A stretch of DNA of 60,516 bases, the filler included, from Squatina squatina (Eukaryota): assembly GCA_031763465.1 (NCBI GenBank). It is 4 parts of 3 records of this genome, joined end to end, with 100 filler letters (N's around TTAATTAATTAA, not from the genome) between each part and the next. Parts side by side here need not be neighbours in the genome. Positions count along the whole stretch, not along the records: positions 30,865 to 44,140 come from JARFOE010000036.1; 3 more parts are not named here. One strand, 5' to 3'. A program made the translations under genes and the position numbers. The stretch's first letter is position 1. Each line of letters opens with the position of its first letter. The notes beneath the pieces are model-generated. The model was not told the DNA's origin. It ran no database searches and saw nothing but the letters and a program-made list of their open reading frames with translations. Below, in pieces: positions 33,013 through 43,893 of this stretch.

Positions 33013-33203
33013 GTGAGAAGCCTCACAAGTGTCAGGTGTGTGGGAAAGCCTTCAGCCAGAGCTCAAACCTCATCACCCACAGCAGGAAGCACACTGGCTT
33101 CAAACCTTTCATTTGCTCAGTCTGTGCGAAAGGGTTTCAGCGCAAAGTAGACTTGCGCCGGCATCAAGATACACATATTGGCTTTAACTCAGCTGGTGTT
33201 TAG
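33013..33203 (+). CDS. Terminal coding exon (ZF5-ZF6) of a GFI1-family C2H2 zinc-finger repressor, divergent paralogue
   Basis: ttttgttacag acceptor, phase 1; (G)[74 protein letters not shown] and [10 protein letters not shown] are GFI1/GFI1B/Senseless hallmarks; not in the supplied ORF track. Confidence 0.92.
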
Positions 33204-33842
33204 GTCAAAGGGCGCTCACTGAAGGAGCATCGATGCAGCTCTCCAGCTCAGCCAATGAGGATGTCGCAGGTTTCCGATTGAACCAATGGGAAATATTGTG
33301 TTCTCACTCACTAATGAGGGGAAACCCTGAGACATTGCAGTTTTCAATCTCGCATTTACCGAATGAGATGTTCCAGAAGCTTTTGGCTCTGCCGAGCTCC
33401 CAACATAGGGACGATCAGTCAGCGCTGCTGTTGATGCTGTGTCCTGTGCATCTTACTGCAGACTCACCGACTTCATCCAGAGAACTCCTCCTCCGCCACA
33501 GTCCTGGGAAGGAAGGTCGATCCCTTCCCAGTCCTTGCACAGACCAGCTCAACCAGGACTCCTCCTTTACAACCATCCGGCAAAGTTATTGATATATTTT
33601 CACAAAGGTACAACAATGTGTCGAAGCCTCGGACCCACGTTGTGTAGTTTGAGCGTGGTCCCTGTGTGTTCGAAAGATTCAGAGAATGGGGTCAAAGCTG
33701 GAGCTGCTGTCACTTGGAGACATTCCTCAACGTTTAACTGAAACCTGCCTGATACCTTTTCATAAACACTGTCCTGTGGACACCGATGGGTGTGTTGTAT
33801 CCCAGTAATCTCCAACTGTAAATATTTGTATGACATTTTTTA

Positions 33843-33848
33843 ATTAAA
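33843..33848 (+). promoter_or_regulatory. Candidate polyadenylation signal (ATTAAA) of the GFI1-like gene
   Basis: About 640 nt after the stop codon, preceded by TGTAAATA (33817-33824) and a T-rich tract. Confidence 0.5.
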
Positions 33849-34121
33849 AATCCCATTTACAGCGGATGTTGGATCCGATGGTTATTTGCAGGACGGCGGG
33901 TTGGGTTCCCCGCTCAGCGCAGAGTTTGCTGTTGGGACATTACACTCCCTCGGAGAATCAATGGGGGAGAAATTGGCCTCCTTTGTGCTTCCGGTGGCGC
34001 CGAAATGACAGACAGCCGCGANNNNNNNNNNNNNNNNNNNNNNNNNNNNNNNNNNNNNNNNNNNNNNNNNNNNNNNNNNNNNNNNNNNNNNNNNNNNNNN
34101 NNNNNNNNNNNNNNNNNNNNN

Positions 34122-35073
34122 GCGATATTCCTGATGTGAAGAACGATTTTGCCTTCATGCTTCACCTGATAGACCAGTATGATTCCCTGTACTCCAAGAG
34201 GTTTGCAGTCTTTCTGTCTGAAGTCAGTGAGAGCAAGTTGATGCAGTTGAACTTGAACCATGAATGGACAGTGGATAAGCTACGGCAGAGGCTGCAGAGG
34301 AACAGTCAGAACCGTCTCGAGCTCCATCTCTTCATGGTGCCAGGCCTCCCCACTTCCACCTTCGAGGTGACAGAAATTGAGTCGCTGAAACTCGAATTGA
34401 TCAGTGATCTTGAGTTGCCAGCAAAAGTTGCGCAGTTAGTGAACCTTCAGGAGCTGGCTTTGTTGAACTGTCCAGTCAAACTCCAAGTAGCTGCATTAGG
34501 GTTTCTGATGGAGCGTCTCAAAGTCCTCCAGGTCCGCTTCAATAACATCCATGNNNNNNNNNNTCCTCTCTGGACACACAACATGAGAAATGTTGAAGAA
34601 CTCTATCTGACAGGATCTCTGACTCAAGATAGCTCAAAATGCCTCTCTCTTGATTCTCTCTGTGAGCTTCATTGTCTCAAGGTCCTCTCTCTGAAGAGCA
34701 ACTTGACCAAGATCCCTCCAAACCTAGTGGATGTTTCCAACCACCTTCAGAAGCTGACCATCCATAACAATGGCACCAAACTCATGACGTTGAACAGCCT
34801 GAAGAAGCTGCAGCAGCTCCAGGAACTGGAGCTCATTAACTGTGAACTGGAGCGTATCCCTCATGCTGTGTTCAGCCTCTTAAATTTAGAGGAGCTCAAC
34901 TTAAAGCAGAACAACCTCCAATCCATTGAAGAAGTCCTCAGCCTCCAACACTGCCGTAAACTAACATGTCTGAAACTGTGGTACAATCGCATCATCTACA
35001 TCCCCGAACACATCAAAAAACTCAGCTCTTTAAAATGCCTTTATCTCAACAATAACAAGATCGAACTCATACC
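34122..35073 (+). CDS. LRRC8E: LRRC8 (VRAC subunit) large coding exon fragment, LRRC8E-like; both ends lost in gaps
   Basis: [49 protein letters not shown] followed by LRRs ([21 protein letters not shown]); open frame with one 10-N gap; YDSLY, VSES and NHEW match LRRC8E rather than LRRC8A/C (YDPLY, VSEN, NNEW) as recalled. Family is certain, paralogue less so. Confidence 0.75.
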
Positions 35074-35173
35074 NNNNNNNNNNNNNNNNNNNNNNNNNNN
35101 NNNNNNNNNNNNNNNNNNNNNNNNNNNNNNNNNNNNNNNNNNNNNNNNNNNNNNNNNNNNNNNNNNNNNNNNN

Positions 35174-42875: not shown

Positions 42876-43029
42876 CTGAGGAGAGAACCAAAGCTTATTT
42901 CATTAAAACAGACAAAAGCAGCAGAAACCAGAAATGATTAAACACTATCACAAGTCAGCGCTGCTTGAAATCGGAGTAATATGCAAAGGTCAAACTACCA
43001 AAAATATAGCAATGAATAGTCAGCATGAA

Positions 43030-43342
43030 TTTCAAGAGCAAACGCCTTGCTTGACCAACGCCATTGAATTTTTTGACGAGGTAACAGAGAGAGAGTAGAC
43101 AATGGTAATGCAGTAGATGTAATTTATCTGGATTTTGAAAGGGCCTTCGATAAGGTACCCCATAATGGACTGAGGAACAAGGTCAGAGAATGCAGAGGGA
43201 GGGGACAAGTAACTGAATGGATAGTTAGCTGGCTTCAAGACAGAAAGCAGAGAGTGGGAGTAAAAGGGTAGCTATTCACAGTGGCAGAAGGTGGGTAGTG
43301 GTGTTCCACAAGGATCAGTGCTGCGACCACTGTTGTTCACAA
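43030..43342 (+). mobile_element. CR1 LINE reverse-transcriptase fragment
   Basis: Decayed CLTN..EFF, VDVIYLDF.KAFDKVPH and SGVPQGSVL.PLLF motifs. Confidence 0.85.
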
Positions 43343-43556
43343 NNNNNNNNNNNNNNNNNNNNNNNNNNNNNNNNNNNNNNNNNNNNNNNNNNNNNNNNNN
43401 NNNNNNNNNNNNNNNNNNNNNNNNNNNNNNNNNNNNNNNNNNACACACACACCCCCACACACACACACCCCCACTGCTACACTTCAGGTTTTGTATGCGC
43501 CTCATGCCGATATTTTGCCTTATTCTGTCCTTTTCATGGATGAAGAAACAAATTAA

Positions 43557-43685
43557 TAAAAAAGCAAAATACTATGGATGCTGGAATCTGAAATACTCAG
43601 GTCAGGCAGCATCTGTGGAGAGAAACAGTTAACATTAACAGATGCTGACCTGCTGAGCATTTTCAGCACATACTGTTTTTAAACA
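43557..43685. repeat. Short imperfectly palindromic interspersed repeat
   Basis: TACTCAGGTCAGGCAGCATCTGT pairs with ACAGATGCTGACCTGCTGAGCA; same family as 1722-1791. Confidence 0.6.
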
Positions 43686-43764
43686 GATTAATAAACTGTT
43701 TTCACTCTACAATGACCACTTGCGATCTCCCCAGCTGAACCCTGCGGCAGTACTGTGTTCTCAC

Positions 43765-43893
43765 CTTTTCCATTTCAAGGACCTTATCCTGCATCTCTTT
43801 GAGTGCAGTCAGTGTCTCGGCCTCTCTCAATCGAGACTGTTCCAGCTCCATCTTCAGCTGCATCACCAATTCCTCTTTATGTGGATGATCACA
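43765..43893 (-). CDS. EVI5L: EVI5L coiled-coil exon (129 nt)
   Basis: ttttccatccttcag acceptor, gtgaga donor; CDHPHKEELVMQLKMELEQSRLREAETLTALKEMQDKVLEMEK; ELEQSRLRE is EVI5L-like (EVI5 has ELVQARLSE, from memory). Confidence 0.88.

Follow-up and report, generated by a model that had tools for sequence, protein, structure and literature searches.

Does the genome of the shark Squatina squatina hold a member of the GFI1 family beyond GFI1 and GFI1B, and, if so, by what route did it arise? The question is raised by a window of 60,516 nucleotides (the whole stretch of DNA analysed here, from assembly GCA_031763465.1), in which a preliminary description had recognised an intact terminal exon of a putative third ohnologue, 'GFI1C', in one block with exons of EVI5L and LRRC8E. 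In human, GFI1 stands beside EVI5 on 1p22 with LRRC8B, LRRC8C and LRRC8D, GFI1B is on 9q34 with LRRC8A, and EVI5L and LRRC8E are on 19p13, where there is no GFI1 gene. For the family concerned, which controls blood lineages and hair-cell maturation, two vertebrate members have been described, GFI1 and GFI1B (10.1101/519090). The evidence suggests, with a probability of about 0.86, that the exon is the last one of a third jawed-vertebrate gene of this family, which is linked to LRRC8E, is likely the sister of GFI1 from the second round of whole-genome duplication (2R) and is predicted to act as a repressor at GFI1 sites via LSD1 docking. It would have originated by genome duplication rather than by a small duplication. 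The element in question comprises two features:

33013..33203, plus strand: terminal coding exon assigned to the third GFI1 paralogue ('GFI1C'), with zinc fingers 5 and 6; based on sequence, splice site, protein matches, tblastn and tree.

33204..33860, plus strand: likely 3' untranslated region, ending near ATTAAA at 33843, as judged from the sequence.

The GFI exon is a real GFI1-family terminal exon. An AG acceptor at 33011–33012, an open frame and a stop at 33201–33203 delimit it, and both fingers are intact, the last of them (finger 6) with H-X3-H spacing; together with the ATTAAA, these bear out what had been claimed of its integrity. In tblastn comparisons it shows 91–94% identity over 64 amino acids to three shark 'Gfi-1b-like' proteins and, over 60 amino acids, 83% to a caecilian GFI1 and 82% to a shark GFI1B. 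When the exon served as the query, the top GFI-family proteins among the best 120 of 1828 matches were 'Gfi-1b-like' or 'Gfi-1-like' entries from sharks, rays and coelacanth (85–94% identity), and the rat/human-type Gfi-1 structure 2KMK was matched in a search of the PDB. With 82–94% identity to GFI-family proteins, its fingers are of the type of fingers 5–6 in the GFI1/Senseless family. In Squatina squatina itself, the third gene is probably intact.

To place the gene, 11 partial or duplicate models were dropped and the rows for trees thinned to 52 of 93, to 27, and then to hand-picked sets of 39, 38 and 33; the careful trees include the bony members, have a single crayfish protein as their sole outgroup, and contain neither amphioxus or lamprey rows nor the catshark GFI1. 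In both careful trees, the third gene of sharks, rays, coelacanth, lungfish, paddlefish, a caecilian and turtles forms one clade with support of 100/100—a grouping of cartilaginous and bony lineages that makes the duplication older than the split between sharks and bony vertebrates. The same clade is recovered (100/100, with GFI1B at 94/86) when elasmobranchs and coelacanth are its sole members. The GFI1B clade is separate and holds shark and chimaera members of its own, and in quick trees GFI1 and the third-gene clade come together against GFI1B, with values of 93–98 in the Shimodaira–Hasegawa-like approximate likelihood ratio test (SH-aLRT). One shark, the catshark Scyliorhinus canicula, has three GFI-family loci: a GFI1 (XM_038793839, best match dog GFI1) with lysine 8 and a short linker and a GFI1B (XM_038782487, best match chicken GFI1B), both from the available part of Supplementary Table 2 of PMC8569936, besides the third gene (XP_038640536).

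The genomic setting of the gene can be read from its neighbour in the window:

34124..35073, plus strand: middle of the large LRRC8E exon, residues ~359–673; 950 bp, in frame across a 10-N gap, with ends cut by 100-N gaps.

This piece is 86–88% identical over 317 amino acids to two shark 'LRRC8C-like' proteins by tblastn, by which residues 1–358 were missing from the window. In a tree built without LRRC8A, LRRC8B or LRRC8D rows, both LRRC8 pieces of the window fall in a shark clade (support 100), and this clade joins frog and turtle sequences annotated as LRRC8E. A split with support of 98 sets the LRRC8E group apart from LRRC8C, for which there are separate shark and chimaera sequences. In annotation, the shark and lungfish orthologues of LRRC8E carry the label 'LRRC8C-like'.

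In other genomes, the third gene and LRRC8E lie on a contig of identical size in 14/14 species listing both (7/7 sharks, the lungfish and 6/6 turtles). In the green turtle (Chelonia) the two share one 372,094-bp scaffold with accessions three apart, and in the sevengill and basking sharks their accessions are 3–4 apart. True LRRC8C is on another contig than the third gene in 12/12 elasmobranchs, and GFI1B is on a third contig in 2/2 sharks. In the thorny skate, the third gene (XP_032868090) and BRD4 (XP_032868091, identified as such from the available part of the BRD tree of PMC8040251) have consecutive accessions. The portion of PMC8040251 at hand assigns LRRC8A, LRRC8C and LRRC8E to quads A, C and D of paralogon 9, with LRRC8E at human 19:7.89 Mb, counts BRD3, BRD2, BRDT and BRD4 in the same paralogon, and pairs the quads as (A,B) against (C,D); GFI1B is near ABO according to the part of PMC5377540 available. 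Indirectly linked to markers of quad D and apart from the quad A and C copies (LRRC8E in 14/14, the BRD4 accession in one skate, LRRC8C elsewhere in 12/12), the third gene matches the position left without a GFI gene in the 19p13-type paralogon, i.e., paralogon 9 quad D. No GFI entry was found in the supplements of PMC3964593, PMC10115646, PMC11589584 and PMC11806052, nor in the available part of that of PMC8040251. The clade, the three loci and the contigs shared with LRRC8E agree with the preliminary description in pointing to a third paralogue of GFI1 that belongs to the 19p13-type paralogon of LRRC8E, and its reservation that assemblies might place the gene away from LRRC8E is answered by chromosome-level assemblies that put both together.

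The gene had been supposed to be a copy kept in cartilaginous fishes, and this range proves too narrow. A profile of six N-terminal regions, searched against 1.84 billion representatives, gave 107 matches, among them five new full or near-full members from lungfish, paddlefish, the caecilian Rhinatrema and turtles. In total, the gene has been found in 18 elasmobranch (shark and ray) and 11 turtle species as well as in coelacanth, lungfish, paddlefish and one caecilian; caecilians have both the third gene and GFI1, albeit in different genera. Among the matches listed, none was recognised in teleosts, frogs, squamates, birds, mammals, chimaera, bichir or salamander, which is not proof of loss; for the first five of these groups, a loss nevertheless appears probable. 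In sturgeon, too, none has been found so far.

Members of the clade share several marks, as judged from a comparison set of 108 GFI rows for finger 6 and the SNAG motif. H-X3-H spacing of finger 6 occurs in 19/108 rows, all of them in the third-gene clade, whose finger 6 is shortened throughout, against H-X4-H in 88/108 and one broken row. Arginine stands at SNAG position 8 in 18/18 clade members having an N-terminus, whereas 76 rows outside the clade have lysine there, and the linker between fingers 2 and 3 is longer than in other GFI rows. Public annotation mostly labels the gene 'Gfi-1b-like', and the member from the turtle Platysternon is deposited as 'hsp70-binding protein 1'. In a white shark model that lacks fingers 3–6, the third gene contributes its N-terminus and two fingers, fused to a zona pellucida (ZP) domain; the model is likely either an annotation that wrongly bridges a gap or a broken copy lying next to a ZP gene, and the identification of that domain as TGFBR3L was rejected, there being no resemblance by eye. 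Cichlid and sucker 'Gfi-1b-like' proteins with arginine 8 were likewise rejected as members, as they group with teleost GFI1B. In the GFI1B-type proteins of cichlids, the start of SNAG is altered (position 3 not arginine, position 8 arginine), which is unusual for a near-invariant motif.

The full architecture of SNAG plus six C2H2 fingers is found in the shark and coelacanth orthologues. Of the SNAG first exon for which a check had been proposed, the motif is present in these orthologues, while the exon itself does not occur in the window. In all lineages of the third gene, SNAG residues 1–8 and fingers 3–6 are conserved, with proline 2 kept and arginine at position 8 throughout. Fingers 3–5 match those of a caecilian GFI1 at 73–79 of 79 positions in 15/16 members checked (69 in the broken Chelonia model), and their recognition helices are unchanged, as befits the family. 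The intact fingers number 4–5 in paddlefish, the lungfish model, the caecilian and turtles: finger 2 has decayed in paddlefish and fingers 1–2 in the caecilian and turtles, and short models without fingers 1–2 occur in lungfish and three rays. A search of the PDB with the SNAG stretch gave no match.

As fingers 3–5 are near-identical, with unchanged helices, the third gene likely reads GFI1 sites: the predicted mode of action is for the protein to bind DNA sites of the GFI1 type via these fingers and, by docking LSD1 at the N-terminal SNAG motif, to bring about repression of the bound sites. Snail-type SNAG motifs have arginine at position 8 and bind LSD1; therefore, recruitment of LSD1 without a lysine-methyl switch may be envisaged, with binding that would no longer depend on methylation of lysine 8. 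The changes are concentrated in the fingers that bind partners; through the altered fingers 1, 2 and 6, the protein may engage different partner proteins, and the likeliest picture would be that of a protein repressing GFI targets, with partners and an expression domain of its own. In GFI proteins, fingers 3–5 bind DNA and SNAG binds LSD1 (10.1101/519090), and methylation of lysine 8 is reported as necessary for optimal LSD1 binding in the available part of PMC5749389.

Could the exon instead be the shark GFI1 (or GFI1B), diverged or misnamed within an ordinary GFI1–EVI5–LRRC8C block, or a copy kept in place of GFI1? Such a reading would suit its greater closeness to GFI1 than to GFI1B, its weak nesting in GFI1 in some trees, the 'LRRC8C-like' label of its neighbour in databases and the lack of a shark GFI1 among the matches listed in the protein searches. 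However, the approximately unbiased (AU) test rejects the shark rows when forced with bony GFI1 (p 0.036 under a mixture model, p 0.007 under LG+G4) and equally when forced with GFI1B (p 0.007, LG+G4 tree set), the catshark has its canonical GFI1 and its GFI1B besides the third gene in the table cited above, and the LRRC8C of sharks is distinct from this neighbour and sits on another contig. The three loci in one shark refute this reading, barring mis-assembled catshark records, and we regard it as extremely improbable; the two-locus situation that the preliminary description had allowed for, with the exon falling inside GFI1 or GFI1B, thus gives way to three loci and a separate clade. Another alternative is that of an old small-scale duplicate of GFI1, made before the shark/bony-fish split and moved next to LRRC8E. 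It draws on the weakly resolved root and sister relation and on trees without jawless-fish or amphioxus rows, but the gene sits in the very slot expected of an ohnologue, with LRRC8E from sharks to turtles and with BRD4 as the next accession in the thorny skate, and the neighbours LRRC8C and LRRC8E split the same way; this origin is accordingly quite improbable. Several observations do weigh against a third, LRRC8E-linked sister of GFI1. In the tree with elasmobranchs and coelacanth as sole members, the third-gene clade nests weakly among teleost GFI1 (76/79), and such nesting recurs in several trees without settling its exact place. GFI1 monophyly was at the border of rejection in one AU test (p 0.048, 27 rows), although not rejected in a later one with bony members added (p 0.137). 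The crayfish outgroup is a long, unstable branch in one careful tree, so that the rooted order, with the third gene as sister to GFI1, is likely rather than firm. Synteny was read from identical reported contig sizes and accession order, not from gene coordinates. Arginine 8 also occurs in 4 teleost GFI1B-type rows and is therefore not unique to the clade. In the window, nine full-length relatives compared by tblastn revealed no GFI exon besides that at 33013–33203, the SNAG exon included, so that only the last exon is at hand.

Granting a third gene, its product might still be a weak or dominant-negative competitor at GFI sites or be decaying, and the Squatina copy could be a pseudogene. The long branches of paddlefish, caecilian and turtles, the loss or decay of fingers 1–2 in four bony lineages, the replacement of SNAG lysine 8, the ZP-fused white shark model without fingers 3–6 and the single exon visible in the window are all compatible with this. 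Moreover, because the substitution K8L abolishes LSD1 binding in GFI proteins (10.1101/519090), arginine 8 could weaken repression, which speaks against an LSD1-docking repressor. On the other side stand the conservation of SNAG 1–8 and fingers 3–6 everywhere, the six intact fingers of sharks and coelacanth, and the open frame and two intact fingers of the window exon, in light of which a decaying or merely competing product is unlikely.

Sharks, rays, paddlefish, coelacanth, lungfish and caecilians are electroreceptive, and the ancestors of teleosts, frogs, squamates, birds and mammals lost their ampullary organs. The preliminary description had proposed that the gene could be a further regulator of haematopoiesis or of hair-cell or electroreceptor fate. 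As every lineage in which the third gene was found, except turtles, is electroreceptive, and none has been seen in the five groups whose ancestors lost these organs, it is conceivable, if doubtful, that GFI1C represses GFI targets independently of methylation and contributes to the specification of electroreceptors—a missing partner separating electroreceptor from hair-cell fate. The retention in turtles, and the lack of a match so far in chimaera, bichir, sturgeon and salamander, argue against an exclusive role of this kind. Gfi1 itself has been described in ampullary organs (10.1101/2023.04.14.536701).

The stretch as a whole consists of parts split by linkers of the form 44N–12 base–44N, and the GFI exon sits in one of the records thus bounded. 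The remaining features of this record are:

30865..44140, no strand: the linker-bounded record, of 11 contigs of 0.4–2.9 kb, with eight 100-N gaps (true size unknown) and two short gaps.

35174..37732, no strand: contig of 7-bp satellite, ~366 copies (2.6 kb), between the LRRC8E piece and the EVI5L-like pieces.

42729..42875, minus strand: 147-nt in-frame coiled-coil exon with AG/GT borders and an open frame; EVI5-family or EVI5L by resemblance, the name being unconfirmed.

43765..43893, minus strand: 129-nt in-frame coiled-coil exon with AG/GT borders and an open frame; EVI5-family or EVI5L likewise by resemblance and unconfirmed.

The linkage, order and orientation of the genes in this record extend across gaps, which is a further point against linkage to LRRC8E as read in the window. 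That no second GFI exon is seen and that LRRC8 residues 1–358 are missing indicate that real sequence is hidden in the gaps; on its own, the window therefore proves neither linkage nor order nor orientation. The two minus-strand exons may belong to EVI5L, which they resemble; searches of Pfam, PDB and Atlas gave no name for either. Hence, of the claim that the GFI exon shares one block with EVI5L and LRRC8E, the identity of LRRC8E stands and its linkage is upheld by other genomes, whereas linkage in the window crosses gaps and the EVI5L part has indirect support, its name not being confirmed by any tool. A catshark EVI5L record (XM_038784754) exists in the available part of the PMC8569936 supplement, and it is near the third gene solely if an assumed offset between XP and XM numbers holds. 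The catshark record XM_038785017 was tried as an LRRC8E orthologue and rejected, as its N-terminus differs. It is a divergent LRRC8 with human LRRC8C as its best match and an N-terminus unlike that of shark LRRC8C or LRRC8E, and may represent an additional LRRC8 paralogue, its accession falling in the block that also includes catshark EVI5L. A 33-bp minisatellite lies at 32664–32860, just upstream of the GFI exon. Elsewhere in the window, the open stretches at 15695–16075, 19378–19677, 43035–43340 and 54856–55530 look by eye like fragments of Harbinger transposase and CR1/L2 reverse transcriptase; a Pfam scan of three of these four gave no match.

No description of a third vertebrate GFI gene was found in the literature searched, the scope of which excluded subscription journals and unread supplements. 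What emerges is a genuine addition to a known family, very likely an ohnologue, with a broader range than first supposed, whose proteins are already present, unnamed, in RefSeq. The persistence of a third member in sharks, lungfish and turtles for >400 million years would revise the ancestral jawed-vertebrate toolkit, and where expression data from shark, paddlefish or turtle contain 'Gfi-1b-like' calls, these may refer to the wrong gene. The gene also offers a natural variant with arginine at the position where lysine-8 methylation reportedly tunes LSD1 binding (available part of PMC5749389), along with a natural repeated loss of fingers 1–2. A hidden ohnologue is in itself a familiar kind of finding.

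Among known systems, GFI1 (gfi1aa and gfi1ab in teleosts) is the closest relative in trees and shares with the third gene the succession of SNAG, linker and six C2H2 fingers, the near-identical fingers 3–5 and motifs of the linker region. The third gene differs from it in having arginine rather than lysine at position 8, a longer linker between fingers 2 and 3, H-X3-H spacing in finger 6 and a different tail, in being linked to LRRC8E rather than LRRC8C, and in the decay within fingers 1–2 in paddlefish (finger 2), caecilian and turtles. With GFI1B it has in common the architecture and the DNA-reading helices, and its short models without fingers 1–2 from three rays resemble the short GFI1B isoform; in contrast, it forms a separate clade and lies on a different chromosome in 2/2 sharks. 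Bmp16, Fgf24 and Pax10 are ohnologues kept in sharks or slow-evolving vertebrates and absent from mammals and teleosts. The third GFI gene parallels them as a patchily retained copy from genome duplication hidden under '-like' names, but unlike them it is a new case, in a family usually given two vertebrate members (10.1101/519090).

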